NCBI GenBank assembly: GCA_964016885.1
Contig: OZ024743.1
Location: 241,552,001 to 241,616,000 of the forward strand
Length of the DNA: 64,000 nucleotides
Direction: 5' to 3'
From: Eledone cirrhosa
Lineage: Eukaryota
The stretch's first letter is position 1. Every line of letters begins with the position of its first letter. Below the pieces are notes generated by a model, which did no database searches, had not been told where the DNA came from, and was given only the letters and a program-made list of their open reading frames with translations. This document shows, in pieces, positions 2,782-35,003 of this stretch. Made by a program: the position numbers and the translations under genes.

Positions 2782-3155
2782 CATTACTGGTACTTTATTT
2801 TATCGACCCCGTAAGTGTGAAAGACAAAGTTAAGCTCGGAAGGATTTGAACTGAGACCGTAAAGGAGCGAAACTCTATTCTGCAAAGCATGGCGTCCGAC
2901 CTTCTACCGATACTGCCAATCTACCACATAATAATAATGATTGCTACTAAAGGCACAAGGCCAGTAATTTGGGGGGAGGGGAAAGTCGATTAAATCGACC
3001 CCAGTACGTTACTGGTGTTATGTTTTATCGACCCCATAAGGATGAAAGGCAATGGTAACCTCGGCGGGATTTGAAATCAGACCGTAAAGGGCCGAAACTC
3101 TATGATACAAACCATGGTGTTCGACTCTCTAACGATACTGCCAATCCACCGCCCT
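2782..3155 (-). mobile_element. Two tandem family A SINE copies on the minus strand (~2782-2927 and ~2935-3155)
   Basis: Reverse complements of the family A head, body and tail (GGATTTGAACTGAG, ACTGCCAATCTACC, CTCGGCGGGATTTGAAATCAGA). Confidence 0.85.
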
Positions 3156-3384
3156 TGACAATACGATAATTATAATAATATCTGTTGTGTCAACGTTCGA
3201 TAATAATATGATCATTATTTAAATATCTGTGTGACGTCACAATTCGATAATAATAATAGGGTTTGTGTGTGTGTCGAACTATACAGTTCGATGATTATTC
3301 TAATGATCGAACTGTATTGTTTGTTTGTGGCTTTAGAGTACGTTTGTTATCCTAGTGTCTATGTCTAACTTCACATTACAATCA

Positions 3385-3870
3385 CTAGCAGAAAAACCAC
3401 CCTGTGGGTAGTTTTCTGCTAGCATGTGTAGTGTGCATATTGATATTATACGCAATATAAACGTTATGGTATAACGATGCAAATATATGAACGTTTATAT
3501 AAGCGATATAATATAGCGTACGTTATATCATAACCGGAAGTATTGACATTTGAAAATTTTAAAAGAAATGAATCTTAAAATAAGCAATCATTATATATAA
3601 TAATATTTATATTTTATCAACAGCTCTCGAAATTTAGTACATACATTATATAATTGTTTCTACTTTAGGCACAAGGCCAGCAATTACCCAGTGCATTACT
3701 GGTACTTTATGCACTGGGTAATTGCTGGCCTTGTGCCTAAAGTAGAAACAATTATATAATATTTATTCATTATTTATTCAGAGTAATCCGACTTATTTTA
3801 TAAACTGGATGAAAAAAATATATTCAAGACATAGACAGTCCCGCACTCCTCCCTTTATTATATTATGATT
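3385..3870 (+). mobile_element. Non-autonomous interspersed repeat, possibly Helitron/Helentron (HINE)-like; second partial copy at ~34697-34978
   Basis: Starts ACTAGCAGAAAA with a 5' hairpin (3386-3423) and ends CTCCCTTTATTATATTATGAT; the body aligns by eye with 34697-34978. Class assignment is inference from the termini. Confidence 0.45.
3645..3760. repeat. Perfect fold-back of a family A SINE 3' tail
   Basis: 3645-3696 is the reverse complement of 3709-3760; the 12-nt loop TACTGGTACTTT is also SINE sequence. Confidence 0.9.
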
Positions 3871-4089
3871 ATCATGCAGACTGTTTGCGTGTGACATCAG
3901 AATACGATGATTATCATAGTGTCTGCGTCTAACTTCATAGTACGATAATCAATATGATATAACGTCTGTTTGTGTGTGACGTCATAGTATAATCGTTATC
4001 TTAGAATCTGTTTGTGTGTGATGTCAGATTACGATGAATTTCAAGTTGTCTGCGTCAAACTTCACATTATGATCATTATTATAACGTCT

Positions 4090-5123
4090 GTTACGGCCCT
4101 TGCCATTCTGAGTTCAAATCCCGCCGAGGTTAACTTTGCCTTTAATCCTTACGGGGTCGATAAAATAAAGTACCAGTAATGCACTGGGTAATTGCTTGCC
4201 TTGTGCCAAAAGTACAAACAATTATTATGGCGTCTATTTCTATCTAACTTAATTATACGATCATCATTATAGGGTTAGTTTGTGTCTAAACTCATATGGC
4301 AGTATCGCTAGAGGATCGGACGCCGTGCTGAGTTAAAATCCCGCTGAGTTTAACTTTGCCTTTCATTCTTACTGGGTCGATAAAATAAAGCACCAGCAAT
4401 GCACTGGGGTAATTGCTTGAATTGTGCCAAAAGTAGAAGCATTATCAATTATTATTATGTTTGTGAGTGGTAGATTGGCAGTATCGGTAGAGGGTCGAAC
4501 GCCATGCTTTCCAGCATAGTTACGTCCCTTTATGATCTGAGTTCAAATCCCGCCGAGGTTGACTTTGCCTTTCATCCTTACGGGGTCGATAAAATAAAGT
4601 ACCAGTAATGCACTGGGTAATTGCTGGCCTTGTGCCTAAAGTAGAAACAATTATGTTTGTGAGTGGTGGATTATTATGTTAGGGCAGTGGATTGGCAGTA
4701 TCGGTAGAGCGTCGGAAACCATGCTTTACAGCAGTATAGAGTTGCACCCCTTTATGATCTGAGTTCAAATCCCACCGAGGTTGGCTTTGCCTTTCATCCT
4801 CACAGGGTCGATAAAAATAAAGCACCAGTAATGCACTGGCGTCGATTTAATCGACTTTCCCCTCCCCCAAAATTACTGGCCTAGTGTCTGTAATAGAAAT
4901 CCGTATGTTTGTGAGTGATTGGCAGTATCAGTAGAGCGTCGGTAAAAATGCTTCGTGGTATAGAGTTATGGCCCTTTATGTTGTGAGTTCTAATCTCGCC
5001 GACGTTAGCGTTGCCTTCCATTATTACAGGATCGATAAAATAATGCACCAGTAATGTGCACTGGGGTTGATTTAATCGACATTACCCTCCCACCAAATTG
5101 CTGGCCTATAGTAGAAATCATTA
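4090..5123 (+). mobile_element. Run of five family A SINE copies (~4090-4227, 4297-4445, 4468-4653, 4681-4900, 4917-5123)
   Basis: Repeated TGGCAGTATCGGTAGAG...GAGTTCAAATCCCGCCGAGGTTGACTTTGCCTTTCATCCTTACGGGGTCGATAAAATAAAGTACCAG. Confidence 0.9.
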
Positions 5124-5329
5124 TTTGAAATTATCCTTGTGCCGAAATTTAACATACAATCATTATTATAAGGTATGCTTCAGTCTAAGTTTAAAGTACG
5201 GTCATTATTATATGTGGTCTTTCTGTGTTTGGTGTCACTGTGCGATCATTATCCTAATATCTGTTAGAGACTAACTTTCCAATATGGTCGTTATCATAAT
5301 ATCTTTTATGTCTAATATCACAGACATAT

Positions 5330-5550
5330 GCTCACTGATATTCACTGATTTCACAGGCATTAATAGATATTTACTAACAGAAACTTACTATCAGACATTA
5401 ACATATATTTACTAATAGATATTTACAGACAAGTATTTATTGATAGAAAAAAAAATATTTATTGACAGACGATTATTGAGAAATATTAACAGATATTTAC
5501 TGACAGATTGCTTACATACATTAACAAATATTTATTTATAGATATTTGCG
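5330..5550. repeat. Degenerate ~14-bp tandem repeat
   Basis: Recurring TATTTACTAACAGA / TATTTACTGACAGA / TATTTATTGATAGA units. Confidence 0.6.
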
Positions 5551-5640
5551 GGTATTCATTGAAGATAAGAATAAGCCTTTACGTAGAGGAGGTTAACGTC
5601 GTGTCTTTAAATCTCAGATATTCTGACTTCTTTGTATTAT

Positions 5641-5842
5641 CGGCAGTATCGTTAGACACCATGCATTGCAGCATAGTGTTATGGCCCTTTACGTTATGAG
5701 TTCAAATCCCATCAAGGTTAGCTTTGCCTTTCATCTTTACGGGGTCGATAACAGAAAGTACCAGTAACGCACTAGGGTCGATTTAATCGAATTTTCCCTC
5801 CCACTAAATGGCTGGTCTTCTGCCTATAGTAGAAATCATTAT
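5641..5842 (+). mobile_element. Family A SINE
   Basis: GGCAGTATCGTTAGA...GAGTTCAAATCCC...GCTTTGCCTTTCATC...TAGTAGAAATCATTATT. Confidence 0.85.
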
Positions 5843-7014
5843 TCGTCTTCAGCTTCTTTAGCGTTTAGTCATCTTTGATTGAATCAGACCTAAAATCAAA
5901 GTCATTCTGTTTTGTTCATACTCAGAGTATGTTCAACTACAAGATCTAATGTTATATTTCTCTCTTCACAATATACAGCTGTGTTTTTGCGATAAATATA
6001 GCTTTTATGTCTAGATAAAGCAATCGCGTAGGCGTTCCCTGGTTTTGTTCTATTAATATTGTTTGGTATGTTATAAAAATGTATTCTTCCTTTCTCTTTT
6101 GTCAGAGTCTAGTGGACGTTTTTCTAAATCTCGACTAATCTTGTGATTATCCATGCTTTACTGTTATATCTAACGTAAGATATTGAATTCCTAATATGAA
6201 TTGAAATGAAATTATTAAATTAAGAAATTGAACAGCTCACTAACACCGCATTCAAGATTCTTACGGGGCTTGAGCTGTGGCCATCTGTTAATAAATGTAA
6301 TTATTTAAAATCCGCCTTCACAACTCTATTGGAAAACACTAGCGTTATTGTTTTATGTTTCTGTGACAGAGTACAGTAAATTATTGTTCAAAATTTTAAG
6401 ATGGCTGTTATATTTGTTTGGTAAATAACATGTTGCTAACATCTTGTTAAATAAATTGGAATCATCTCGTGAGATCTTAAAAGTTATTTTCAGCAAACAT
6501 TTTAGTGATGTTTGAATGCTTGTTGATTTTTAGTTGTTTTATAATTCAAGAAAATGTTCAAATTTCCAATCGACATTTTCCACCTGGTTTATTTTAATTT
6601 TATTCCGTAATATCTTTTCTTTATATATTTTAAATCTCAATTACGCGTGATTTCGTTACATTTTATCGAAATTTTATATCTTCCTTTTCAGAAAAATGTA
6701 TGGCTATTTTGGCAAATTTAGTTTTGTTTACTAAAAGATGTTTCTGTAGCTTTGCCTGTAGACAATTCAACATTGAGAGTTTCATATTTTTTGCGTAACT
6801 TTAAATGCTGAAGTGAAAGCCTTTGCTACTCTATAAAGATGCTCTCGCCTATATTATCTTGCAATTTCCAACACTGTAATCTATTAAATTAACAACTTAT
6901 GGGTTGTTATTATTTCTTCATTTATTTCATAGCCTTTCAATGGGACATTTTATTCTGCATATATCATGTCACCTAAATGTAGTGAACCAATCTTCCAGTA
7001 AAAAGGGCAATTAT

Positions 7015-12465: not shown

Positions 12466-12615
12466 AAATAAATATTAAATATGGACGTAAGATATGAATT
12501 TAAAACAAAGGCTAAAATAATTGAAAGCGAGGCTGATATATAATATAAAATAAAGATAAGAAATAAAATAAAATAAAATATCGGGAAAATAGAACGTCAT
12601 AAAATATATCATTTG

Positions 12616-12707
12616 ATATATGACATACCTCTACGGTCTTGATATTTCAATTCCTGTATTGGCAGTCAGGAGTTGAAATATCAAGACCGTAGAGGTATGT
12701 CATATAT
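12616..12707. repeat. 41-bp-arm hairpin
   Basis: ATATATGACATACCTCTACGGTCTTGATATTTCAATTCCTG pairs with CAGGAGTTGAAATATCAAGACCGTAGAGGTATGTCATATAT (one G-T); 10-nt loop. Confidence 0.9.
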
Positions 12708-12926
12708 GAATCATATATGTTATATGACGAGGACGTATTGAAAAAACAACACAGTACCTTTGAAATATATATAATAAAGCATATATTTTGATTATGTGAA
12801 TATCTTCATTTGTTAATATTTTTAATAATATTAAAAGCTCCAGGAAAATCTTTTCACTGTTGGGTGCTTTTAATCTATTGTAAAACTGTATTCATTGGGT
12901 AATCAATGAACCATATTAATCTTTGG

Positions 12927-12970
<44 letters not shown>

Positions 12971-13076
12971 CGAAGGAAATGTGGTAAGGAACCAGGTGGA
13001 CCATAACGCCCCAAAGTACTCAATACTTAAGGAAGAAGAGTGGGTAATAGGAACGAGTAGGACCCCATATATATAT

Positions 13077-13130: not shown

Positions 13131-13255
13131 TCTATATACACCCGCCCACATATATATATATACATATATACATACATACATACACACGTACATATACACA
13201 CACATATATTCATATATATATATGTGTGTGTATGTTTGTATGTATGTCTATGCAC

Positions 13256-13303
<48 letters not shown>

Positions 13304-13355
13304 CAGGAAAGAAGGTTTACATGGTTTGCTATACAAAAAAGTTTTTAATCACATA

Positions 13356-13461
13356 GCTTACATTTGTTTCACTGAACTGGTATGTCTAGAGATCGCTATC
13401 CGCCTAATTTTGCGTCACTCGATCGCCAATACAGAATTATAACCAGTCAGATCTTCGGAGC
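13356..13461 (-). ncRNA. Hammerhead ribozyme motif in the PLE 3' repeat (mirror of 18963-19068)
   Basis: Reverse complement of the plus-strand motif. Confidence 0.7.
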
Positions 13462-13821
13462 ATGCGAGAATGAAGAAAATACACAGGCAAGAAAATAAAA
13501 GAAAATATGGAGTAGTTATGGCATTCAATTAGAACAATAAACAACAACAATTATTACAACAATGCTATCAATAAACTATTTAAGGAGACCCTGACATTAC
13601 TTAGGTGGGGGGCATATAATGTATCTAATGTTACGGCGTGAAAACCAGCTGTCATAAGGCAAAAAGTATCGTAGTGTGTATCAATTTTAAATTATAAAGA
13701 TAAGCTAGTTTTTACAGTCTTTCTCTTCATCTTCAACCGTATACATGAGTGGGACCACTGTCAAAGCTCAATAGTTGTAGAGTTAATACAGAGGTTAACG
13801 AATTAATATACGCATATATCT

Positions 13822-13894
<73 letters not shown>

Positions 13895-14230
13895 AATATA
13901 AATACATATACACATATATGTGTACATAGACACATACATACACACTAATATACACTCGTACAAAAATATACATACATGCAAAGAGAAAAGCGTGCTAATT
14001 GTAATATGGCAAAAAGAAGGTAAAGTAACATTGTAGTAGTGAAATGAGAAAAACTAGGATCTAGGATCAAATGATTGCAGCAGCTGAGAAGGAGTAAGAT
14101 TGTTGGTAGATGAGGTATTTACAGACTATTGTGTGGTATAGACTTGTGAAGGAAATAGTATACTTAATGAATATATATTTTTTGTGGGTAGTAGGTATCC
14201 TAATTTAAAGCTATGTTATGTTGGTTCGAT

Positions 14231-16144
14231 TCACGGAGGTTTGAATCTTATGAATTTAGTGGCTATTCTATGCCTGCAGAAGATAGATCTTTCTAACTTA
14301 TTATTAAGTAGTCTTTTAACATTTCTAAGGATATACAATAGCTCAAGATCACACAGCCCGCAATAGGACATAACTGTACTATAGGTTTTAGCAGCCGACA
14401 ACTTCGACCAGTTGATAGTGTAGCTAGCGTTGCTGTCCTTCAATTCCCATATTTTTCTGGCGAGGGTGGTGGAACCCATAAGAGCTCGGTTATTCATCGA
14501 GTGCCTGTGCACATACCATCTTTTCTTAAAAGAACCCGCGGTGGATCCTATGTAATTCCAAGTGGAGTTACCCGAGATGACAGTGCACATGTACACCAGG
14601 CTCGAATCGAGACATCTATTCGCCAATGGGCACCTATCTGGGAGGTGACAGTTGCAGTTTGAGGCGCTATTATGTGCAGCTTTTACATTCCTATTTAGTA
14701 CCCTGTTATAAGTGGGTTGTGATATATGCCCAATGGGGTTTTGCTGCTGCGCGTTTGTATGCGCTTGTGGTTGTGATGTTGTGATGAGTTTGTGCTTATG
14801 TATAGGTGCAATTGATTTACTTGAGATATTTCTGCGGTTGATCTTGCGTATGTGTGATTCTATGTTAGCTGCTGTTGAAAAAGAGAGTTTTATAGTAGAT
14901 CTATTGAGTAGTTTGTGATATCTATGCGAGATAGGGAAGTGTTTATCTATTAGTTTAAAGAATATAGAGGGCAGTCTAGTTTTTATAGAGGAGTTGAATA
15001 TTGGGTTGAACCATAGGTATTTCCTTTGTCTGTTTCTTCTATTGTTTCTAGGGTTTACGTTATTAGTGTTTTGGCCGTTTACTCTAGGTGTTACATGTCT
15101 AACCCTATGTCTAGTCAAGCTATTCCTATTATTATGTGAGCGGTTGGAGTAGAAATTACTAGGATTGTTTATGTTGTCCTTATTCACTATATACTGTAGT
15201 TTATCTTTATGACCGGCCCTACTTAATGCTGCATTATAATAGTCAGCATGCTCGTTAAAGATTTCTAGGTTTGAGGATAGGCGGGATATTCGGAGGGATA
15301 TACTACGTGCTATGGATTTAATTATGGATTTGGGGTGATTTGAGTTGTAACTAATGTAGGCAAGATTTTCATTATTTTTGTGGAAAGGTTCTATTAATCC
15401 AGTATTTAGATTTAGAGTTACATCTAGAAAATTTACCTTCTTATGGTTTAGTTCGTAGGTAATACTTAGGCCTAGTTTTTTGAAGAATATTCTAATATTT
15501 TTCCTTAGTCTTTCCATGCTCTGGTTGTTTAGGTTCCTAGCTATAAGTAACGTGTCGTCCCTATAAATTCCTCCTTGGAGGTTACTGAATTCCTTATGTA
15601 GGTTGTGTGCTATGAATAGCCCCACGATATCTGTAATTTGCGCAGAATCATTTGAACCCATTGTAATATCGAAGCTATTTATTCTATCCTTTCTTACCCA
15701 GTAGTTATTTTCAAATTTTACGATAGTCCTTCTAGCCGCTATTATTATTTCAATTTCATCATGGGTAAGATCAGAGTTATTTTGGGCAAATATAAGCGCC
15801 TTATCTAGGGTAGCTGGGGATATGGATGCATAATAGTCGTCTATATCAAATTGTATGAAGTTACACGTATCCCTATTTTGTATTTTATTGAACCATTTAA
15901 TTGCCTCGTTAGTGTTGCCCCATAGATTGATTTCTAGTTTACCCTTTATTTGTGCGATTACCCTATCTAGAATGTTTTTGCTAATTTTACCTATGTCTGA
16001 CTTGGATGGGCATATTAATCTAATGGTAGGATTAGTTTCAAAGTTATTTTTGTGATCTTTCAGGTTAAATGTAGGGTTGCACGGGGTAAGCGGTTCGGTC
16101 CTATCTGAAATTCCGAGTTTATTAACTATCTTGAGGCCCTCCAT
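14231..16144 (-). CDS. PLE reverse transcriptase + GIY-YIG endonuclease, N-terminally truncated (637 aa)
   Basis: Identical to the 16202-18205 product apart from two substitutions (MNNRAL vs MKNRAL; STVMSY vs STGMSY). Confidence 0.9.
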   Translation of the reverse strand: MEGLKIVNKLGISDRTEPLTPCNPTFNLKDHKNNFETNPTIRLICPSKSDIGKISKNILDRVIAQIKGKLEINLWGNTNEAIKWFNKIQNRDTCNFIQFDIDDYYASISPATLDKALIFAQNNSDLTHDEIEIIIAARRTIVKFENNYWVRKDRINSFDITMGSNDSAQITDIVGLFIAHNLHKEFSNLQGGIYRDDTLLIARNLNNQSMERLRKNIRIFFKKLGLSITYELNHKKVNFLDVTLNLNTGLIEPFHKNNENLAYISYNSNHPKSIIKSIARSISLRISRLSSNLEIFNEHADYYNAALSRAGHKDKLQYIVNKDNINNPSNFYSNRSHNNRNSLTRHRVRHVTPRVNGQNTNNVNPRNNRRNRQRKYLWFNPIFNSSIKTRLPSIFFKLIDKHFPISHRYHKLLNRSTIKLSFSTAANIESHIRKINRRNISSKSIAPIHKHKLITTSQPQAHTNAQQQNPIGHISQPTYNRVLNRNVKAAHNSASNCNCHLPDRCPLANRCLDSSLVYMCTVISGNSTWNYIGSTAGSFKKRWYVHRHSMNNRALMGSTTLARKIWELKDSNASYTINWSKLSAAKTYSTVMSYCGLCDLELLYILRNVKRLLNNKLERSIFCRHRIATKFIRFKPP

Positions 16145-16201
16145 GTTTATGCCACTAACGGTATCATAGTAAAAGCAGACAAAACATCAAACGTATACTC
16201 T

Positions 16202-18205
16202 ATGGACATTAACACATACAATAACTTTATTCAGCGTGAACTACATAAAAAATATAAAAAAAAAAATGAATCTACACTCACCAGCATAAACATGGAGGGC
16301 CTCAAGATAGTTAATAAACTCGGAATTTCAGATAGGACCGAACCGCTTACCCCGTGCAACCCTACATTTAACCTGAAAGATCACAAAAATAACTTTGAAA
16401 CTAATCCTACCATTAGATTAATATGCCCATCCAAGTCAGACATAGGTAAAATTAGCAAAAACATTCTAGATAGGGTAATCGCACAAATAAAGGGTAAACT
16501 AGAAATCAATCTATGGGGCAACACTAACGAGGCAATTAAATGGTTCAATAAAATACAAAATAGGGATACGTGTAACTTCATACAATTTGATATAGACGAC
16601 TATTATGCATCCATATCCCCAGCTACCCTAGATAAGGCGCTTATATTTGCCCAAAATAACTCTGATCTTACCCATGATGAAATTGAAATAATAATAGCGG
16701 CTAGAAGGACTATCGTAAAATTTGAAAATAACTACTGGGTAAGAAAGGATAGAATAAATAGCTTCGATATTACAATGGGTTCAAATGATTCTGCGCAAAT
16801 TACAGATATCGTGGGGCTATTCATAGCACACAACCTACATAAGGAATTCAGTAACCTCCAAGGAGGAATTTATAGGGACGACACGTTACTTATAGCTAGG
16901 AACCTAAACAACCAGAGCATGGAAAGACTAAGGAAAAATATTAGAATATTCTTCAAAAAACTAGGCCTAAGTATTACCTACGAACTAAACCATAAGAAGG
17001 TAAATTTTCTAGATGTAACTCTAAATCTAAATACTGGATTAATAGAACCTTTCCACAAAAATAATGAAAATCTTGCCTACATTAGTTACAACTCAAATCA
17101 CCCCAAATCCATAATTAAATCCATAGCACGTAGTATATCCCTCCGAATATCCCGCCTATCCTCAAACCTAGAAATCTTTAACGAGCATGCTGACTATTAT
17201 AATGCAGCATTAAGTAGGGCCGGTCATAAAGATAAACTACAGTATATAGTGAATAAGGACAACATAAACAATCCTAGTAATTTCTACTCCAACCGCTCAC
17301 ATAATAATAGGAATAGCTTGACTAGACATAGGGTTAGACATGTAACACCTAGAGTAAACGGCCAAAACACTAATAACGTAAACCCTAGAAACAATAGAAG
17401 AAACAGACAAAGGAAATACCTATGGTTCAACCCAATATTCAACTCCTCTATAAAAACTAGACTGCCCTCTATATTCTTTAAACTAATAGATAAACACTTC
17501 CCTATCTCGCATAGATATCACAAACTACTCAATAGATCTACTATAAAACTCTCTTTTTCAACAGCAGCTAACATAGAATCACACATACGCAAGATCAACC
17601 GCAGAAATATCTCAAGTAAATCAATTGCACCTATACATAAGCACAAACTCATCACAACATCACAACCACAAGCGCATACAAACGCGCAGCAGCAAAACCC
17701 CATTGGGCATATATCACAACCCACTTATAACAGGGTACTAAATAGGAATGTAAAAGCTGCACATAATAGCGCCTCAAACTGCAACTGTCACCTCCCAGAT
17801 AGGTGCCCATTGGCGAATAGATGTCTCGATTCGAGCCTGGTGTACATGTGCACTGTCATCTCGGGTAACTCCACTTGGAATTACATAGGATCCACCGCGG
17901 GTTCTTTTAAGAAAAGATGGTATGTGCACAGGCACTCGATGAAAAACCGAGCTCTTATGGGTTCCACCACCCTCGCCAGAAAAATATGGGAATTGAAGGA
18001 CAGCAACGCTAGCTACACTATCAACTGGTCGAAGTTGTCGGCTGCTAAAACCTATAGTACAGGTATGTCCTATTGCGGGCTGTGTGATCTTGAGCTATTG
18101 TATATCCTTAGAAATGTTAAAAGACTACTTAATAATAAGTTAGAAAGATCTATCTTCTGCAGGCATAGAATAGCCACTAAATTCATAAGATTCAAACCTC
18201 CGTGA
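16202..18205 (+). CDS. PLE reverse transcriptase + C-terminal GIY-YIG endonuclease (Naiad-type; frame open upstream to ~16154)
   Basis: RT motifs FIQFDIDDYY, MGSNDSAQITDIVG, IYRDD, VNFLDVTLNL; linker CNCHLPDRCPLANRC (CxCx5Cx5C, described for Naiad PLEs); LVY..NYIGST..FKKRWYVH; C-terminal CGLC..E..LLN. Upstream in-frame IVKADKTSNVY shows 5' truncation. Confidence 0.93.
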   Translation: MDINTYNNFIQRELHKKYKKKNESTLTSINMEGLKIVNKLGISDRTEPLTPCNPTFNLKDHKNNFETNPTIRLICPSKSDIGKISKNILDRVIAQIKGKLEINLWGNTNEAIKWFNKIQNRDTCNFIQFDIDDYYASISPATLDKALIFAQNNSDLTHDEIEIIIAARRTIVKFENNYWVRKDRINSFDITMGSNDSAQITDIVGLFIAHNLHKEFSNLQGGIYRDDTLLIARNLNNQSMERLRKNIRIFFKKLGLSITYELNHKKVNFLDVTLNLNTGLIEPFHKNNENLAYISYNSNHPKSIIKSIARSISLRISRLSSNLEIFNEHADYYNAALSRAGHKDKLQYIVNKDNINNPSNFYSNRSHNNRNSLTRHRVRHVTPRVNGQNTNNVNPRNNRRNRQRKYLWFNPIFNSSIKTRLPSIFFKLIDKHFPISHRYHKLLNRSTIKLSFSTAANIESHIRKINRRNISSKSIAPIHKHKLITTSQPQAHTNAQQQNPIGHISQPTYNRVLNRNVKAAHNSASNCNCHLPDRCPLANRCLDSSLVYMCTVISGNSTWNYIGSTAGSFKKRWYVHRHSMKNRALMGSTTLARKIWELKDSNASYTINWSKLSAAKTYSTGMSYCGLCDLELLYILRNVKRLLNNKLERSIFCRHRIATKFIRFKPP

Positions 18206-18541
18206 ATCGAACCAACATAACATAGCTTTAAATTAGGATACCTACTACCCACAAAAAATATATATTCATTAAGTATACTATTTCCTTCACAAGTCTATAC
18301 CACACAATAGTCTGTAAATACCTCATCTACCAACAATCTTACTCCTTCTCAGCTGCTGCAATCATTTGATCCTAGATCCTAGTTTTTCTCATTTCACTAC
18401 TACAATGTTACTTTACCTTCTTTTTGCCATATTACAATTAGCACGCTTTTCTCTTTGCATGTATGTATATTTTTGTACGAGTGTATATTAGTGTGTATGT
18501 ATGTGTCTATGTACACATATATGTGTATATGTATTTATATT

Positions 18542-18599
<58 letters not shown>

Positions 18600-18962
18600 C
18601 GTAGATATATGCGTATATTAATTCGTTAACCTCTGTATTAACTCTACAACTATTGAGCTTTGACAGTGGTCCCACTCATGTATACGGTTGAAGATGAAGA
18701 GAAAGACTGTAAAAACTAGCTTATCTTTATAATTTAAAATTGATACACACTACGATACTTTTTGCCTTATGACAGCTGGTTTTCACGCCGTAACATTAGA
18801 TACATTATATACCCCCCACCTAAGTAATGTCAGGGTCTCCTTAAATAGTTTATTGATAGCATTGTTGTAATAATTGTTGTTGTTTATTGTTCTAATTGAA
18901 TGCCATAACTACTCCATATTTTCTTTTATTTTCTTGCCTGTGTATTTTCTTCATTCTCGCAT

Positions 18963-19068
18963 GCTCCGAAGATCTGACTGGTTATAATTCTGTATTGGCG
19001 ATCGAGTGACGCAAAATTAGGCGGATAGCGATCTCTAGACATACCAGTTCAGTGAAACAAATGTAAGC
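18963..19068 (+). ncRNA. Type-I hammerhead ribozyme variant (CCGAAGA core, long stem II)
   Basis: GCT-CCGAAGA-T-CTGACTGG...CCAGTTCAG-T-GAAACA AA TGTA-AGC; predicted cleavage after 19065. Confidence 0.7.
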
Positions 19069-19293
19069 TATGTGATTAAAAACTTTTTTGTATAGCAAAC
19101 CATGTAAACCTTCTTTCCTGATTTATTATTACTCCAAGTGTTTACAACATAGGAATTACAGCATACCCGCAGCATCACTATGAAAACGCCTTGTTGAGTC
19201 AAACCAAGCCAAGCGTTAATATCATCCACTACCTGGAATACCATAACTGGACTTCACCTAAGTGGACTGCATTTAACTATTATTTGTTAATCC

Positions 19294-19336
<43 letters not shown>

Positions 19337-19702: not shown

Positions 19703-19704
<2 letters not shown>

Positions 19705-21431
19705 GGAACAATTTGAACAGGGACAAAACAGAGAGGCAGTACAACGAATGTTTATTAATTTCACGCTCTGGAGAGTGGGGTGTTGGTGGGGGACGACGTT
19801 TCGGGCATAAGCCCTTCCCCAGGTGAGAAGTGTGTGGGAACAGAGTTCCAAGGGTGTGTAGGGGAGTGGTGGAGAGACATATAGCGAAAGGAAACGGTGC
19901 GAATGAAAAAAATAAAAATAAAAATAAAGCATGATCAAAATACAAGGAATGAAATAAATTTAAATAAAAAAGCCTGATCAAAATAAACTGAAATTAAATG
20001 GGGGGTAAAACAGGTGGTGGAAGGGTGTGGGGTGTGTAGAGGTGGTGGCGGGTGGCGTGGGGAGAGGGAGACGGGGTGTCCGAGCGGGGAGGGCTGAAGG
20101 TGGTGTGTGTGTGTAGGTGTACGTGTGTGTGTGTGTGTGTATGTGAAAGTAAGGGTTGGGGGAAGAACGGGGTTGCATGTTCAGGAAGAGGTGTGTGTGG
20201 GGGGGGGTCGGAGTGTCTGTGCGTGTGTGGATAGAGAGGTGGGGGAGAGGAATCAGGAGGCTGAGAGTGTAAATATGTGGTGGAAAGCACGTGTGTGTGG
20301 GGTTTAAGCGTGTTGTGGGTGTAGGTGGCGTGTGGAGAAAAAAATGTGTTGGGGTGTGTGTGTGGGTGAGTTATATAGGTGATTACGTAAGAGGATGGTT
20401 GAAAAGTTGGTAAAATCCAAAGGTGTTTAGTGGATTCTGTGGTGGTCAATTTCTGCGTGCGAGTATTCCATGAAGCGATGGTCGGAAGAGGAGAGATGTG
20501 GGGTGCGCGCGCAACAGGAAGTGGTCAAGCAGTGGGAGTGCTGTGTGTCTGTTTGGGCTGGGAAGTGGTCAGAGGGCATAGCAGCAGTCGGTGGGATGGT
20601 AAGGGGGCGAGGATGGGTAGGTGTGAAAGTTGGAGTGTGGAGGGTGTGTGTGTGTGTATTAGTAGAGGTGTTAGTGGGATGAGTGAGTGTGGAGCGAGGG
20701 CGTGGGTGGAGCGGGGAGAGAAGGGTGTGTGTGGTTCTATGGAGGGAGTGTGGTGTACTGATGTGTGTGTAGTTTGATGAAAGGGTGTTAGTGGGTGTTA
20801 GTATACGGGAGGTGGGGAGGGGTTGAATGTAGGTGTGAGTGGGGGTTAGTGGTGGTAGGGTGTGTAGAGTTGGTGGTGTACGAGGGTGTGTGGGTACGTG
20901 TGCGTGGGGTTGGGGGTGTTATTGATGTTAGTTGCGTGTGGGGTGGGTGGTGTAAGTGGGTGCGTGTGTTCGTGTGCTTGGGGTTAGGGGGTGTTAGTGA
21001 GGTTAGTTGCGGGGTGGTGGGATGGAGGTGTGGGGGTGAGAGGTGTGGGGGTGAGAGGTGTGGGGGTGAGAGGTGTGGGGGTGAGAGGTGTGGGGGTGAG
21101 AGGTGTGGGGGTGAGGGTTAGTGGTGGTAGTAGGGTGTGTGTTTAGTGTGAGTGCGTGTATATGTGTGCCGGTGGGTGTGTGCGTGTGATAAGGAGGGGG
21201 GGAGGAGAAGAAGGGAGGGATGTTAGTATGTTAGTTGGGGAAGGGAGGTCAGATGAGGGGTGTAGTGGAGGTGTTAGTATTGTTAGTTGTGTTGTGGGCG
21301 GTGAAAAGGAGGGGTGTGTTAGTGGTGTTAGTGGGGGATAAGTGGGGGGGGGAGGTCGAAGGCTAAAGGAATAAGGGTGGGGAGTTCAGGCCGGGGGGAG
21401 TGTGGGTCTGTAAGATGAAGATAGTTCGTTG
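19703..21431 (-). mobile_element. 5'-truncated Neptune-type PLE: last ORF codons, long CA/C-rich 3' UTR, terminal HHR
   Basis: 21431-21363 minus translates QRTIFILQTHTPPGLNSPPLFL* (GIY-YIG C-terminus, compare 42770-43023); HHR AC-CTGGGGA-A-GGGC TTAT GCCC-GAAAACGTC-GT at 19824-19793; flanked by (TA)n. Confidence 0.75.
21025..21116. repeat. 15-bp tandem repeat (GAGGTGTGGGGGTGA) x6
   Basis: Directly visible. Confidence 0.9.
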
Positions 21432-23318
21432 TATATATATATACAGGTGCATAGACATACATACAAACATACACACACATATGTATATATATATATATAG
21501 GTTTAGGAATAACCAAAGAGTGCTTAGAAATACATAGTTTTATTTGCTAACAGTGTTTCATCCATACCCTAGGGCAGGTATAATCAGAGCCTATAAACAA
21601 AAGTATATCAAAGGTTGCAGGCTCCATCGAGCCTAGTCACCAGAACAAGGAAGAAGGACAAGCAGGGGGGAACACAATACATGATACATATAATATTAAA
21701 AAATTACATCATAAAAATTACATCAAAAGTTTATCACATAAATGGTGCAATAGATCATAAGGATGTTGAGAGAGGAGAGCAAGAAATGGATGAGGGTGTT
21801 ACTCAGCATGATCAAAAAACAAATCAAGCATAGATACATCAATTCACAAGCAGTGCAAGTACATAATTTACAAGCAGAGTATGAAAGCTTGTAAGCAGGA
21901 GTCAGTAAACAGAAAAGTTGGTTAGCTGTGGTGCAGCTTTAGAGGCAGGATTGTTTATAGGAAAGATGGTGCACTCTAGCAGTATCGCCTTGTAACAGGT
22001 TGATTTCTCCATATCTGGCCAACACCCTTTATCCATTGGTTCCAGTTCCAAGTATTAGGCGACATAATACTAGGTTTCCAAATACACGCATAGAGGATTT
22101 GTCCACAGAGGCAGTCTGCAACAAACACCTTAAATCCCAAACAGAATACAATGAAGTGAGGTAAAGCGGAGTACATGCACTGCTGGCACTCCAATGAAGG
22201 AAGTGGAAATAAAAGGGGTCCGCAATATCTGCTATCTATCACAGTCTTCACGTTCGGTTACGCAACCCAACGTCCCACGTGAAATACACAGTATGGCCTA
22301 GTCGGCATCGGGCTAAAGTGCCATACCATATGAGGATAAACTACAGTAAATGCTATTCGTAATGGCTAGTTAGTCTCGTAGACAGAAAGCGTATATAGAA
22401 AATCCGCTATTGAATTACCTAGGGCAGAGTGAAGGAAAAGCAGTTATGGTTAGGTTAATAGGCGAGCTTATTAGAAAAAGTGTAAATTTCTGGTGTGTGC
22501 AAGTACTGCAGAAGATATAGTAAACTCACGGCTAGAACTATCGATGACAACAATGTTGTTTACATGTCCACCGCGTAGTTTTCGTGTAGATCACTGAATC
22601 TGGAGGTTGTAATCCTTTCACAGTCGGGTATAACCCCTCCTGGGTCGGCTGGAAGTCAATATCAACTGTCGTACTTTGCCTTTAATGTGGTTTTATAATT
22701 TATCATAATTGCAGCACAATTCATATTCCACAATTTCAATATTTACCTTTTCATTAGTAACTCCCAACGGTTGTCAAAATACGAACGCAGGAAGTCGTTC
22801 TGCGCTTATGAAAAGTATGGGAGGCAGCTCGCGTCATAAAGGGCGGATTCATTAGATATCCCCGGAACGCTTGGGACAAACCCGTTGTTCGATTCAAATC
22901 CTACGGGGGTTTGATCGATCATGTGGGACGTAGTCCACTCGATCCGCTTCAATTGTTCACTATATTATGTTTGATCTATCTACCACGTTATGGTTAAGGC
23001 TATCTGGACCCAAGATGCCCAGGCCATCCGCCTTATAGCTGTGGCGGAGTATGTTGGGCTTTCGATAAACTATTATGTTGTGCTTTCAGTTAGTGCACAA
23101 TGGGCATTTATATAAACCTCATCCCACTGGTTAGTATGGGTAGGTGCCCGTATAGGGTCAAACTGTGGTGGGTGGAGTGAAAAGGCCTTAAGTGGATTGT
23201 ACCATAAGGGTTATTGGGTTAAGGTAAAAAGATGATTAAGGTAAAGAAAAAAGTAAGAGAGAATGAAAGAGAGAAAAGAGGATAAGAGGCAATATACGTT
23301 TGAAGGGCTCTAATTGGT

Positions 23319-23358
<40 letters not shown>

Positions 23359-23369
23359 TGATAACCTGA

Positions 23370-23409
<40 letters not shown>

Positions 23410-23415
<6 letters not shown>

Positions 23416-24579
23416 TCAGGTTATCAATAATGTAGTGATAATATATCGTTACGTTAGAGATGAACAGCGTACGTGCAGGTTTGCTCAACGAGTATAAATT
23501 ATATTCCGGAGAAATGTAGAAAGGATGAATATAAAATGAAAGTGCTTTTGTTAAAAAAGGAATTTATTAGGTGTTGACATATGTTTCTGTAACAGACCGA
23601 ATACCTATGTATCGCTGCTTGCGTAATCATATATAGACATCGCCTTTATAGACATCGTTATTCGATAAAACATGAAAACCAGCGTTATGTAACAACACTC
23701 GCAGACAAGGCTTGGCAGCTGCGTGAAAATAACCAACAATTTCACCTAAAATGGGATATAATAGCGGCTGTCCCCCCATAATCCAATGGACAGGAATTTT
23801 GTAAATTATGTAATGTAGAATTATTTTGTATTATGAAATCCAAAAACATTTTATTAAATAACAGAATAGAGCGATCGTTATACTGTAACCATCGCTTAAG
23901 ATCTACATTTTCATATTATAAATACTACCAGGATTGAACGCCTGTCTCTATCCCCGTTTGATTGTCAAAATAGATATGAACATTCTTTATTAGTCTTAAT
24001 TCTATCAACTCTTCTATTATTTACCTTTTAATACAAACTACTATAGATAAAATGAGATTTCTGATTTCTTGATTCAATTCCCTAATGCATATACCAGCTG
24101 GCTACTAGCATTGATGTTATTTAGTAGCAATCGAAATCTCCCCCTTCCCCAATTGACACTTTATAATTAATACTACTGCACCAAATGACCAGCCCTGTCC
24201 ACTGTCCAGTTGGTCAAGTAGAGATTAAAATTGGCACTCCCAAAATTCTTATTTAGATTTACTCATGGTATTCTCATTAAAAACCCATTATATACTTGTC
24301 TAGCAGTAAATTATTTTACCATCTGTCATATACTATCCCCTCTGTTCCTTCCTCTTTTACTAATATAAATACTTCAATTTTTCTGATTTTATCCAGTTTA
24401 TCCAAAATCTCTGAAGAAGTGACAACTGATTATACATTTGCTATCGAATACTTGCTAACATTATATGATTACGCAAGCAGCGATACATAGGTATTCGGTC
24501 TGTTACAGAAACATATGTCAACACATAATAAATTCCTTTTTTAACAAAAGCACTTTCATTTTATATTCATCCTTTCTAT
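23410..24579 (+). mobile_element. Short Naiad-type PLE remnant with inverted 3' end on the 5' side
   Basis: ~23652-23936 translates HRYSIKHENQRYVTTLADKAWQLRE...KWDII...FCKLCNVELFCIM...LLNNRIERSLYCNHR (one stop); ~23517-23633 is the reverse complement of ~24462-24579; HHR CTGAAGA-A-GTGACA...TGTTAC-A-GAAACATATGTC at 24411-24519. Confidence 0.88.
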
Positions 24580-25384: not shown

Positions 25385-25462
<78 letters not shown>

Positions 25463-25659
25463 CCAAAGATTAATACGGTTCGTTGATTAATCTACGAATA
25501 CAATTTTACAATAGATCAGAAGCACTCAACAGTTATTTTCCTGGAGTATTTAATATTATTCAAAATATTAATCGATCTGACCTGACTCAGTAACCCGCGG
25601 CTCGTCAGACCACTTGTGATGTTAATGGAAAAAAATATTTTTGCATCAACATTACAAGG

Positions 25660-25748
25660 GGTCTGACGAGCCGCGGATTACCGAGTCGGGTGAGATCGAT
25701 ACAGATCGAACGAACCTTGAGCTGATCAGTGGCGAAACGCGCGTCACC
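25660..25748 (+). ncRNA. Canonical minimal type-I hammerhead ribozyme
   Basis: GGT-CTGACGA-GCCGC...GTGGC-GAAAC GCGC GTC-ACC; palindromic stem III (ACGCGCGT), GUC site at 25743-25745, AATAAA at 25753. Its 5' half is mirrored at 25571-25623. Confidence 0.85.
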
Positions 25749-25797
25749 AACCAATAAACGTAATGAAGGAGTGGCCAATCGTCCTTGTTATCTTATG

Positions 25798-25853
<56 letters not shown>

Positions 25854-25859
<6 letters not shown>

Positions 25860-26891
25860 TTTACATATATATATACATACATATACATATACGTGTTTTG
25901 CAACTGGTCACTTTGTGGCTCAATGAAAAATTAATAAATTAAACAATCAGAGCTATATATCATAAAACATGTCTATAGAATCACAAGATAAAATTTATAC
26001 TATTTCATCTCCCATATAGCATAATTAATTATATAAAAAATCGAATAGACCAGGCTATAAGAATGAGGCTTATATGAAGAAATCTCCGACAAATAACCGA
26101 AACTAGTGCTTCGCGTCGGCCGGAGCGGAATATTTATCGAATATTTCGACAGCGTAATCGCCCAGATATAGTCAACTAAACAGAATTAGGTGTGAAATAA
26201 ACTAGGAGAAAATAGAATACATTTAAATACCTCTACCATGGTTTCGTCCGTATTTTGAGTTTTCCAATAATTATGTAATAATTATATAAGTTGCAAAACA
26301 CGTATATGTATATGTATGTATATATATAGGTAAACTTTTATATGTAATAATCTCCCATCAGGTTGAGATACAAATTTGGCTGTATTGTGCTGTGCTTTCT
26401 AGCAAAAATGCCACCAGTCGTAAGCAACTACCACACCCCTTCCAACCTGACGGCGACTACGGCACGATTTTTAGCCATTTTGAAATGAATTCTTGGCGCG
26501 ATCACTTTGAAAAATTTAGTGTCTAGATAAGAGCGAGCTTCCTGATGAATCCGGCGCTCGAGTTTATATAATTATTACATAATTATTGGAAAACTCAAAA
26601 TACGGACGAAACCATGGTAGAGGTATTTAAATGTATTCTATTTTCTCCTAGTTTATTTTACACCTAATTCTGTTTAGTTGACTATATCTGGTCGATTACG
26701 CTGTCGAAATATTCGATAAATATTCCGCTCCGGCCGAAGCGAAGCGCTAGTTTCGGTTATTTGTCGGAGATTTCTTCATAGAAGCCTCATTCTTATAGCC
26801 TGGTCTATTCAATTTTTTTATATAGTTAATTATGCTAATTGGGAGAGGAAATAGTATATATTTTATCTTGTGATTCTATAGACATGTTTTA

Positions 26892-26899
<8 letters not shown>
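25854..26899. mobile_element. Non-coding HHR fold-back element (retrozyme-like)
   Basis: Inverted arms 25954-26289 / 26564-26899 and 25854-25905 / 26289-26341; (TA)n flanks; no ORF. Confidence 0.8.
26538..26623 (+). ncRNA. Minimal type-I hammerhead ribozyme
   Basis: CTTC-CTGATGA-A-TCCG...CGGA-C-GAAAC CATG GTA-GAGG; palindromic ACCATGGT stem III. Confidence 0.85.
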
Positions 26900-27024: not shown

Positions 27025-27404
27025 CCAAAATTAAGATAAATCAAATGAATTTAATCCAAATCAAAATTATGGGTGTCATGCCAGAAAGACATGCGCCATA
27101 TCACCCGCAAAATAAGCTCTAAGATTCTAACGAGTAGGTCCGAGCATTTTATAATAACTAGAAATTGATTAACATATAAATAAACATGAATAATCACAGG
27201 AGATAATTTTTACAAGTGTGTAACCACACATAGCTAGGTAGGTAACTACATAAAGTTGACCAGAACTTCAAAAATAGATACCTTATAATATGATTAATCT
27301 TCCCTGTATATATTCCATTAAAGAAATAAATTTCTCCAAATGTAAAAATTATCTCCTGTGATTATTCCTGTTTATTTATATGTTAATCAATTTCTAGTTA
27401 TTAT
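27025..27404. repeat. TA-flanked fold-back element with ~65-bp arms
   Basis: ~27151-27214 is the reverse complement of ~27341-27404; no clear HHR. Confidence 0.75.
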
Positions 27405-27424: not shown

Positions 27425-28440
27425 AACGAAGGAAATGTGGTAAAGAACCAGATGGACTATAACGCACCAAAGTACTCAATACTTAGGGTAGTAGAGTGGG
27501 TAATAGGAACAAGTATGACCCCGACGGCAGAGCTCAAGCCGTTTCGACGGCTAATTCTGGACTAAAGAATTTTTATAATGCAGCCCATCGGTCCTCTGTA
27601 GCCTCAGTAACCCCACCCCCCTAATTTTATGATAGAATTGGCCGATTACACTTTTTATTGCAGATGTGTTAGACCCTAGTGAATTGTGTTCTTTCTGGTT
27701 GCTGCTCCATTTCTGTGGTTTCTAAATTTCTTAGTGGTATTTTTGTATTAGTATTCTTGTATTAGTATTTATGTATTAGTATTTTTGTAGTAGTATTTTA
27801 GCATTTTTGTTCTCAACTTATTAACCTCTCATTGTAAGATATCATTGGCTGATTACTACTAACTATAGCAGTGGTGTTAGAACCCCTGTAAAGCCGCCTT
27901 TATAACATTCTTTTACTACAATCTCGTATTTAGTATTTTTCTCCACCTATTAAACTTTCCTATAGCTTAGAAATACCAATGAGAGATTTGGTGATTGTCG
28001 GAATGGAGTAGTAACCAGAAATTGTTTTTTTTTAAATATATTTATTTCCTTATTTTTATAATAGTTTTTTGTTTACTCCCTTTGGATTTACCTATTCTTT
28101 CAGCCTCCCCCTTCTCCAGTACACTTTTCTCGACCATCTATACACTATCCTTAGAATCTGCTGTATAGATTTCACTTTCAACGCTTGACTGGATTTTCCC
28201 CCACCCCCTCTTTGTTCTACCGGCAAGTTCAGCTACCCCTACCTCCCACCAAATGCCATGATAGAATCATCTGTCTTTACAACAAATTTTTGACCAATCC
28301 TTTTGACAATTACCATCTTCCCATATAAGGAATTACCCCCTGAGAAGTTCGGCTATTTATTTACCAGGCTAAAAATTCTTATTTAGTCCAGAATTAGCCG
28401 TCGAAACGGCTTGAGCTCTGCTGTCGGGGTCATACTTGTT

Positions 28441-28443
<3 letters not shown>
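27425..28443 (+). mobile_element. Non-coding PLE-type remnant with HHR and inverted 3' end; related fragments at 12969-13066 and 40573-40622
   Basis: HHR ACCCC-CTGAGAA-..CGGCTA...TAGCCG-TC-GAAACGGC TTGAGCTCT GCTGTC-GGGGT at 28335-28430; ~27503-27574 is its inverted 3' portion. Confidence 0.75.
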
Positions 28444-29354: not shown

Positions 29355-29355
29355 G

Positions 29356-30366
29356 TATAAAAGAGAAAACACAGGTAAGCATTAAGAGAAGTATTTTATC
29401 CAGATATTTACGACCGTTTCATTGGTAAGTGCAACCTTATATTGCTATACTGCAAATAGCAGCCACTCAATTATAATTGTTGACTATCTTACTCCACGGC
29501 ACCAAATATAGAGGCACACATTGAGATGCTTAATGCTAAAAAGATACATAACAACACCAAAACACAAATTTACAACAATAACAATACAATCACCACCGAA
29601 CACAACAGAATATCTAATACACAACCACCCGCTAATAGGCAAACAAAACGTAACACACTTGTACAGGCATCGCAGCCCACCAATAATGTCAAAGTTGCCC
29701 ATGACAAGAATTGTAACTGCCACCTACCTAAAACCTGTCCATTACATAATGAATGTATGCAGTCTAACCTGGTTTACCAATGCACAGTGGAATCAGACAA
29801 CCAGAAATGGTATTACATCGGAGCAACTGGGAATACATTTAAAGCCCGTTGGCATACACACCGTTACGCAATGAAACATTCCCAGCATCGTAACTACCCT
29901 TGCAAACAAGACCTGGCAACTGATGGAAAGTAACCATCAATACACCCTGAAGTGGAAAACATTATCGAACGCGCCCCCATATCGAAGTGGTATGAGAAGC
30001 TGTCGATTATGCGACCATGAGCTGTTCCACATCTTGAGTTCGAAGAATTAGTTACTCAACAATAAAATCGAAAGATCAATTTATTGTAATCATAGACTCA
30101 AAGAGAAGATTTTGCACTACAAATCGAACCCTTAACCTCTTACTACCAACTGACAAACTGCATATACTTAGACTTTATACCCTCTTGTTGTATATAAACC
30201 CTTTTTATTACCCACAAAACCAATACATATTTCCCCCTCTTCTCCCTCATTCCTCTTCTATTTCTTCGTTTTCTTGCTTCCTTCCCTCCCCTTCTTGGCT
30301 ATCTTTTCTTTTCTTCTTTCTCACCCACTTCTTTGCTTTTATCTTTGTCATTATTATCTTAATCTT

Positions 30367-30432
<66 letters not shown>

Positions 30433-31008: not shown

Positions 31009-31063
<55 letters not shown>

Positions 31064-32400: not shown

Positions 32401-32420
32401 ACTTTGGACACTGAATCACC

Positions 32421-34896: not shown

Positions 34897-35003
34897 ATTA
34901 TTTATTCAAAGTAATCCAACTTATTTTACTATCTGGATTAAAAGAAATAAACCGTACGCAGTTCCGCAGTCCTTCACTACTACTACTACTACTACTACTA
35001 CTG

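Follow-up and report, generated by a model that had tools for sequence, protein, structure and literature searches.

A palindrome with 2.85-kb arms formed by a 5′-truncated Hydra-clade Penelope-like element in the genome of Eledone cirrhosa

RESULTS

A palindrome between two (TA)n tracts

The stretch of Eledone cirrhosa DNA analyzed here (64,000 nucleotides [nt]; GenBank assembly GCA_964016885.1, contig OZ024743.1, positions 241,552,001 to 241,616,000 of the forward strand; termed the window herein, with positions counted from its first letter) contains two head-to-head copies of a Penelope-like element (PLE) encoding a reverse transcriptase (RT) and a GIY-YIG endonuclease (EN). An earlier sequence-only reading had described them as a young palindrome. 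Self-comparison with BLAST yielded one dominant inverted repeat (13298-16152 versus 19126-16284; 2,855 nt, 99.4% identity, E = 0.0, ends placed by exact extension), and the earlier coordinates were right, with 13299 and 19125 one base off inside the 3-nt overlap with the TA tract. The arms surround a spacer of 131 nt (16153-16283) and differ, as had been noticed in outline, by four substitutions (13613/18811, 13840/18596 within the microsatellite, 14373/18063, and 14492/17944) and in the length of a (CA)n repeat, which is 12 nt longer in the left arm. All four substitutions lie in the outer 42% of the arm (P of about 0.03, post hoc), and the inner 1,660 bp form a perfect stem, the pairing of which reaches into the spacer by no more than one or two wobble pairs. 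Two of the four substitutions are of the A/G type on one strand or the other, which is uninformative on an A-to-I origin.

The spacer shares the frame of the right open reading frame (ORF) and encodes its DKT motif, and the right copy alone carries a tail (167 to 168 nt, ending at 19293); the in-frame spacer and the one-sided tail had been seen before. The outer ends of both copies adjoin (TA)n tracts, and a target-site duplication is indistinguishable because both flanks are themselves (TA)n. There is no N in the window. The features of the locus are listed in Table 1.

TABLE 1 Features of the palindrome locus (positions within the window)
Feature	Coordinates	Strand	Remarks
Flank segment, 51 nt	13220..13270	.	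Exact reverse complement at 21432-21482; the pair brackets the palindrome
(TA)n target tract, left flank	13259..13300	.	Last 3 nt overlap the arm (junction microhomology)
Left arm, inverted and more truncated copy, 2,855 nt	13298..16152	-	Begins near right-ORF codon 44; without DKT and tail
Mirror copy of the type I hammerhead motif	13359..13458	-
Left ORF remnant (RT, linker, and GIY-YIG), stop-free	14231..16152	-	Versus right ORF: K597N, G637V
Main copy of the Hydra-clade PLE, 3,141 nt, 5′-truncated	16153..19293	+
Spacer, 131 nt	16153..16283	+	5′-most part of the main copy, in frame; DKT at 16178-16186
Right ORF remnant, 683 aa, no native start	16154..18205	+	About 106 N-terminal residues, including the RWK motif, missing
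Telomerase-like RT, aa 3-380	16160..17293	+	YRDD at 16871-16882; predicted model and structural matches
CxCx5C linker motif (aa 543-551)	17780..17806	+	Diagnostic of the Hydra clade
GIY-YIG EN (aa 560-663)	17831..18142	+	Y564, Y577, R588, H592, E647, N660; CxxC and CxH flank E and N; no CCHH
3′ region, 1,088 nt	18206..19293	+	Includes (TA)n(TG)n microsatellite 18542-18599, found in both arms
Type I hammerhead motif, U4C core, 79-nt extended helix II	18963..19068	+	Predicted cut after 19065; match to our own descriptor at 18966-19065
"Short end," where the inverted copy ends	19123..19126	+	58 to 61 nt past the predicted cut
Tail, main copy only	19127..19293	+
(TA)n target tract, right flank	19295..19334	.
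Mirror of 13220-13270	21432..21482	.	Far end of the older neighboring insertion 19703-21431

The element belongs to the Hydra clade

The ORF listing gives open frames at 16109-18205 (plus strand) and 16186-14231 (minus strand). As first reported, both are open with YRDD (amino acids [aa] 240-243) and YIG (aa 577-579) intact; the catalytic residues of the RT and EN domains are present. Pfam searches returned no family for either ORF, and a PDB sequence search gave weak RT matches only (E = 0.65). Relatives of the ORF numbered 115 among 7,972 candidates, and 12,053 sequences matched at E ≤ 0.001 in a representative set; the best are about 40% identical over most of the length (38 to 46% over long stretches). 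In a model of the full ORF (built on an 80-sequence alignment; predicted local distance difference test [pLDDT] score of 85.7), the RT matched a TERT first (Foldseek E = 1.9e-9; VIA Z = 17.0, root mean square deviation [rmsd] 3.0, 263 residues aligned), followed in VIA by another TERT (Z = 16.1) and the RT of a diversity-generating retroelement (Z = 15.8). The C-terminal 145 aa were folded separately (pLDDT 91.9). Since this EN model had no Foldseek match at E ≤ 0.001, the GIY-YIG fold is taken from VIA, where the GIY-YIG domains of I-TevI (Z = 9.6, rmsd 2.3, 89 residues aligned), T4 EndoII (Z = 7.8), and UvrC (Z = 6.7) occupied ranks 1 to 3. Two low-confidence inserts rich in N, Q, and H (17267-17395 and 17636-17767), reminiscent of the N-rich inserts of rotifer Penelope elements, lie between RT and nuclease, and the distance from RDD to CxC is 302 aa, versus a median of 217 in 63 homologues.

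According to Craig et al. (2021, PMC8557442), Hydra-clade PLEs have a C-terminal nuclease, RWK and DKT motifs, a CxCX5C linker, CxxC and CxH motifs without CCHH, hammerhead ribozymes, and (TA)n targets, and Naiads are defined by an N-terminal nuclease, DKA, CCHH, and the lack of a canonical hammerhead. In the Eledone element, the EN (aa 560-663) follows the RT (aa 3-380), which is the Hydra order and the opposite of that in Naiad. The motif at aa 9-11 is DKT, not the Naiad DKA (DK[TS] in all 56 homologues of at least 660 aa); the linker carries CxCx5C at aa 543-551, and a search of the ORF for the CX2-5CxxC pattern gave no match. CCHH is absent from the EN, where a single cysteine (Cys 566) lies between GIY and YIG, and C641xxC644, E647, N660, and C669xH671 correspond to the Hydra-type arrangement of CxxC and CxH next to the conserved E and N. 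RW[KR] is present in 48 of the 56 long homologues; the matching region of the right copy was removed by truncation. Both junctions show Hydra-type (TA)n insertion, and a full three-stem hammerhead with one core variant lies near the 3′ end, unlike in Naiad. By eye, the ORF also fits the Hydra block of the published alignment, including its gap pattern. Naiads are further marked by a CxC domain between EN and RT and by an IFD; the N-terminus of the Eledone element is lost, and its RT spacing agrees with the Hydra block by eye. By motifs, folds, and this alignment fit, the element is a Hydra-clade PLE; the name "Naiad-type" that it had been given is wrong because of the C-terminal EN, the DKT, the missing CCHH, and the hammerhead.

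A long-helix hammerhead motif and a conserved end

Our hammerhead descriptor found five matches in the window (one per arm and three in neighboring units), against 0.15 expected (20 shuffles of 64 kb); a relaxed version added 24411-24519 and two short-helix matches, one of them doubtful. There was no hammerhead among the Rfam matches listed for the whole window and none in 18620-19295, and standard descriptors and Rfam would miss long-helix hammerheads of this kind. MicroRNA matches from Rfam were rejected as microsatellite or hairpin noise below gathering scores. The U4C core variant is said to reduce hammerhead activity (PMC3088659).

The helix II region measures 79 nt in the element and 57 to 88 nt in four neighboring units, versus a loop 2 of 3 to 10 nt in all 26 rows of published Hydra motifs. 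It also exceeds the 10 to 24 nt of fetched relatives (12 of 18 loci with a match). These relatives are 18 loci (L001 to L018) from a scan of a prokaryotic genome collection, six of them on contigs shorter than 2.6 kb and mostly too short for flanks. They are Hydra-clade elements with TA targets and hammerheads in records filed as bacterial genomes and probably derive from contaminating animal DNA, a source that Craig et al. describe for matches of this sort. Folding z-scores were below −2 for the whole motif in one of the five hammerheads and ranged from −1.9 to −3.8 for the helix II regions alone; the five hammerhead regions, aligned as DNA, had diverged too far for covariation to be analyzed.

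In four of the five long-helix hammerhead units of the window, an end (TA junction or arm end) lies 54 to 61 nt past the predicted cut, and in the fifth at +274. Among 16 hammerheads of the fetched relatives, (TA)4 followed at +32 to +60 in 8 and at +104 or +117 in 2, and was not found within 400 nt in 6. Since a conserved end lies 54 to 61 nt past the cut, the inverted arm stops at a biologically defined place. To the eye, the 13 nt preceding the short end (19114-19126) match sequence close to the 5′ end of the published Hydra-1_Obim consensus, perhaps a conserved cis element. Judged likewise by eye, an intron of 70 to 76 nt (19063-19138; 30818-30887) could be marked out by three signals, namely, GT at the cleavage triplet, a pyrimidine tract, and AG just beyond the short end; this pattern in two Hydra families recalls the 75-bp intron of Penelope, and a third unit does not fit it.

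The insertion is truncated and young

Measured from the position of the right ORF start, homologues extend upstream by a median of 106 residues (at least 100 in 58 of 79). The left copy begins a further 44 codons in, so that about 150 N-terminal codons are missing there, and the first in-frame ATG of the right ORF is codon 17, past the DKT. A hidden Markov model (HMM) of 69 homologues run against the six frames of the window gave nothing significant for the missing N-terminus (best i-E 0.09), the absence of which had been remarked on at the outset. The tail was considered as its source (circular permutation) and rejected: one of its frames is open but scored 2.7 bits against the N-terminal HMM. 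Neither copy is autonomous, as there is no complete ORF with a start codon and no promoter-bearing upstream pseudo-long terminal repeat (pLTR). We read the locus as dead on arrival, its open frames being a sign of the youth of the insertion.

Both ORF differences between the arms are nonsynonymous. Three substitutions in 2,772 non-microsatellite bp correspond to roughly 0.15 million years (My; 0.03 to 0.44 My), an upper bound on a borrowed octopus clock (Jukes-Cantor distance of 0.09 = 25 My; PMC13282606) and in agreement with the recent insertion first proposed; RT errors would make the insertion younger, and gene conversion would make it older.

Inverted copies in the window and in relatives

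An inverted 5′-truncated copy with a one-sided tail is textbook PLE anatomy (PMC8557442), and the arms and tail bear out the earlier recognition of such a copy upstream. The window holds 11 other inverted pairs (arms of 56 to 342 nt, 74 to 98% identity). Arms of at least 600 bp that include ORF sequence occur in 3 of the 18 relatives (0.6 to 1.5 kb): L003 (1.5 kb, 92% identity, covering aa 146-672), L006 (758 bp, 100% identity, with a hammerhead in both arms, an arm end at +55, and a one-sided tail), and L007 (602 bp). Drosophila Penelope copies with long inverted repeats yield small interfering RNAs (siRNAs) matching the repeats (PMC3681739, PMC3136932). At 2.85 kb, the Eledone arm is the longest seen in this comparison but forms the tail of a known distribution. 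The claim that long inversions are rare was overstated, given these loci, the Drosophila repeats, and the 966 nt of Penelope-13_HM.

The spacers of 4 of the 12 inverted pairs measure 124 to 131 nt (16153-16283, 27215-27340, 32505-32628, and 41228-41357). This cluster has a post hoc P of about 0.003 under a log-uniform null, with one of the four spacers set by a SINE head (SINE, short interspersed nuclear element).

Origin of the palindrome

We regard the locus as very probably a real truncated Hydra-clade insertion and lean toward its being a young, dead-on-arrival insertion into (TA)n made in one event by double priming. The RNA and the RT/GIY-YIG protein would have been supplied by a full-length master copy elsewhere, and both strands of the TA tract would have been cut by the nuclease, as in vitro work on another PLE suggests. 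Each 3′ end would then have primed reverse transcription, one at a "long" start site (19293) that gives the tail and the other at the "short" site (19126), 58 to 61 nt past the cut. Neither cDNA would have reached the 5′ end of the ORF, and their stopping points, 131 nt apart, would have been joined to form the head-to-head palindrome. Two primings, one per strand, with joining of the cDNA ends give exactly the observed layout, and the purified PLE protein of Anolis cleaves and extends the two DNA strands, begins reverse transcription at two tail-defining sites, and is a predicted dimer (PMC11167929).

Further evidence comes from the neighboring units. In 23411-24576, 25856-26893, and 27426-28442, it is the inverted copy that bears the extension, and the spacer-bearing copy stops at the TA junction (orientation from hammerhead matches in the first two and by eye in the third), whereas in 29355-31007 the tail is on the main copy, as in the palindrome. 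The extension of 25856-26893 is element sequence, since a 50-nt segment recurs at 26289-26340, and that of 27426-28442 recurs in an independent copy at 12970-13066. These neighbors favor double priming because a cDNA folding back on itself cannot give an extension on the inverted copy only. Given a real insertion, we judge double priming to be moderately probable as opposed to fold-back, since one mechanism that allows either tail arrangement is simpler.

Several observations weigh against this account. Fold-back predicts exactly what is seen at this locus, namely, a short spacer and an inverted copy whose two ends both lie within the main copy; two independent cDNAs ending 131 nt apart after about 3 kb are an added assumption. 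The left arm has the rarer residue at both ORF differences (K in 24 versus N in 16, and G in 29 versus V in 6, of 79 homologues), which agrees, though weakly (n = 2), with copying of the left arm from the right. The extension of 23411-24576 is less certainly an element tail, its end being part of a TA-centered hairpin. In addition, 7 of 100 highly conserved columns deviate in the protein (homologue median, 3; maximum, 16), so that activity of even the source copy is not certain. Taken alone, the palindrome locus fits both double priming and fold-back; its nesting, the shortness of its spacer, and the two rarer residues in the left arm tilt it toward the latter.

Self-priming is the strongest alternative; we hold it to be unlikely on balance. 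The first cDNA, or an antisense RNA as in the version proposed by Arkhipova et al. (2013), would fold over a 131-nt loop, be copied back to the short end, and be resolved there by the nuclease. Besides the nested geometry and the residues on the left arm, the spacers of at most 131 nt in 7 of the 12 inverted pairs of the window (124 to 131 nt in 4) suit this scheme, which is the published interpretation of head-to-head junctions (PMC3846280). It sits less well with a stem that hardly extends into the spacer, and its simple cDNA form cannot account for neighboring units in which the inverted copy alone is tailed; the antisense-template version is compatible with both points.

That the mirror is an assembly artefact, made by a fold-back (chimeric) read or an amplification product, appears improbable. 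The near-identity of the arms and their perfect inner 1,660 bp would suit an artefact, palindromic chimeras are a known problem of long reads and amplification, and tandem and inverted PLE structures trouble assemblers (PMC8557442). However, a fold-back read would mirror whatever follows and not stop at the +58-61 site, and here the mirror halts exactly at the conserved short end and the TA tract and leaves out both tail and flank. Five differences separate the arms (the four substitutions and the microsatellite length), and the same anatomy occurs in neighbors with arms diverged by 2 to 26% and in L003 with 1.5-kb arms diverged by 8%. The sequence is free of N, and the left and far-right flanks share an inverted 51-nt pair (13220-13270/21432-21482), suggesting that the palindrome lies inside an older inverted structure and that both sides belong to one locus; exact matches of 32 to 56 nt also join distant microsatellite-rich units, which makes this pair supporting but not conclusive.

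A single truncated copy that was later duplicated in inverted orientation by host replication or repair is more improbable still. Short TA-centered palindromes at 23358-23427 and 38867-39002 show that local inverted duplications occur, but such a process has no reason to stop at a conserved end 58 to 61 nt past the cut or to rejoin the TA tract, and no flank is duplicated beside the arm.

The first reading had further proposed an active Naiad-type locus mobilizing the non-coding units around it, which we consider scarcely credible. Open frames with catalytic residues speak for activity, and the neighbors share the TA target, the inverted-copy anatomy, and the long-helix hammerheads, so that some Hydra-like enzyme probably moved them. 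Against this stand the Hydra-type domain order, DKT, absence of CCHH, and hammerhead; the missing N-terminus, without which the locus makes no full-length protein; and cephalopod Naiads being reported as old remnants (PMC8557442). Moreover, the locus has no nucleotide kinship with its neighbors: the terminal 394 nt of the element matched none of the 13 neighboring units above shuffles, with BLAST returning microsatellites only (the best unit, 19703-21431, had a score reached by 1 of 40 shuffles), and the neighbors 23411, 29355, and 31061 are remnants of other Hydra families with 36 to 52% protein identity. The locus is thus not shown to drive these units; related enzymes probably moved them, as they share its target and anatomy. 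Two separate insertions in opposite orientations were rejected, as the inner junction shows neither a TA tract nor a remnant of the target.

Other elements in the window

Three neighbors (23411-24576, 29355-31007, and 31061-32860) are 5′-truncated, decayed Hydra-clade insertions of other families (36 to 52% protein identity to the element); the first two each have an inverted upstream copy and a long-helix hammerhead. The hammerhead at 30727, in the unit 29355-31007, has a U3-A8 core variant, which is known, as are dual hammerheads on opposite strands 100 to 700 bp apart (PMC4209133). The non-coding unit 25856-26893 (about 650 nt; hammerhead at 26542-26619) carries a 50-nt segment at the start of its main copy and at the outer end of its inverted copy, an arrangement that a tandem or circular RNA template would be expected to give (retrozyme-like). 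Small hairpin-plus-hammerhead units lie at TA tracts (12599-12927 and 25462-25801), the part 12813-12927 recurring inverted at 25462-25571, and the motif at 25663-25745 has a canonical hammerhead core. Three pieces of one further TA-targeting family were found at 12970-13066, 27426-28442, and 40570-40620; two share the TA junction and tail (92% identity). At 40810-41659 and 42540-42749, a SINE-like head, tRNA-derived by appearance, is joined to a 3′ part whose inverted copy ends at (TA)n; this may be a SINE that PLE machinery has moved.

Beside the palindrome lie older minus-strand insertions (19703-21431 and 21500-23320) with degenerate short-helix hammerheads (19822-19792 by descriptor; near 21550-21595 by eye). 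At 38868-40507 and 41880-43648 lie PLE remnants of other clades, with a nuclease in which two cysteines stand between GIY and YIG and, near 43540, a short hammerhead (by eye). Short near-perfect palindromes were seen at 23358-23427, 38867-39002, and 3645-3760, two of them centered on (TA)n. The region 50894-64000 contains tandem copies of a long interspersed nuclear element (LINE; ORF1 and APE-RT, zf-RVT), the best named relative of which is in Argonauta hians (61%); the copy at 56190-61556 is almost intact but broken near 60254. A SINE-like repeat of 200 to 220 nt forms a cluster of about ten copies in both orientations (2002-5843 and 34766-34904).

DISCUSSION

Significance of the palindrome

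The structure described here is ordinary for PLEs, only longer, and its value is modest and indirect. A transcript through both arms would form a 2.85-kb hairpin RNA, so that the kilobase double-stranded RNA proposed from the sequence is possible if the locus is transcribed through. Cruciform extrusion, also proposed, is generally limited to much shorter spacers and is doubtful across 131 nt; such repeats can, moreover, be unstable in replication. If transcribed, the hairpin would readily serve small-RNA and editing pathways as a substrate, in line with what is reported for Drosophila Penelope, and it would feed silencing or editing rather than transposition.

How PLEs make inverted repeats and tails is an open question according to Craig et al. 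(PMC8557442). The window gives a countable genomic test, namely, which copy bears the tail, where the ends lie relative to the hammerhead, and which arm carries derived changes. The locus also marks a young, seemingly undescribed Hydra-clade family in a clade with one listed octopus family. Beyond this, one may speculate, with more doubt than confidence, that octopods carry a recently active, undescribed Hydra-clade sub-lineage with a helix II of 57 to 88 nt and a fixed RT start 54 to 61 nt past the cut, inserting by two simultaneous primings from a dimeric ribonucleoprotein. Its palindromes would then record the mechanism of PLE integration, near-full-length ones would be self-made hairpin-RNA loci that silence the family and load A-to-I editing, and the same machinery would move retrozyme-like and SINE-headed passengers.

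Comparison with known elements

Non-LTR retrozymes (LTR, long terminal repeat), hammerhead-bearing non-autonomous derivatives of PLEs, share type I hammerheads and PLE-style ends with the neighboring non-coding units, notably 25856-26893. Unlike retrozymes, the palindrome is coding-derived, and the neighboring units are not simple 300-bp tandems and have no sequence in common with the palindrome. Related work is found in the retrozyme preprint bioRxiv 10.64898/2026.07.22.740005 and in PMC9977147 and PMC7229834.

With Naiads, reported as old remnants in cephalopods (PMC8557442), the element has in common the PLE RT, the GIY-YIG nuclease, the (TA)n preference, the inverted 5′-truncated copy, and a tail; Naiads differ in their reversed domain order, DKA, CCHH, CX2-5CxxC linker, and lack of a canonical hammerhead. 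Penelope of Drosophila virilis likewise has rearranged copies, the long inverted repeats of which give rise to siRNA (PMC3681739, PMC3136932), and Poseidon of Anolis (PAc) has two RT start sites that define the tail, with extension of both strands in vitro (PMC11167929). Penelope and Poseidon belong to a different clade, and the palindrome locus keeps no direct pLTR or promoter-bearing upstream copy; self-comparison detected no direct pLTR or partial tandem at the locus, though its expected 5′ site is lost.

A report of 31 recently active Penelope-like families in Octopus vulgaris does not mention Hydra in its main text (PMC13282606), and we found no description of this family or of long-helix Hydra hammerheads in the literature searched, which was mostly non-subscription and outside Repbase and Dfam. 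The element therefore seems to belong to a young, undescribed family of the Hydra clade. Within this clade, it is longer than is usual (3,141 nt even without its 5′ end, with a 1,088-nt 3′ region, versus generally less than 3 kb), and its tail of 167 to 168 nt exceeds the 30 to 40 bp usually quoted for PLEs. Penelope-13_HM shares the inverted 5′-truncated copy, there 966 nt long. Hydra-clade elements, such as Penelope-13_HM and Hydra-1_Obim of Octopus bimaculoides, have in common with the Eledone element an RT followed by a C-terminal GIY-YIG nuclease, DKT, CxCx5C, CxxC and CxH without CCHH, (TA)n targets, and a type I hammerhead near the 3′ end; by eye, the Eledone element is clearly divergent from Hydra-1_Obim and belongs to a different family.

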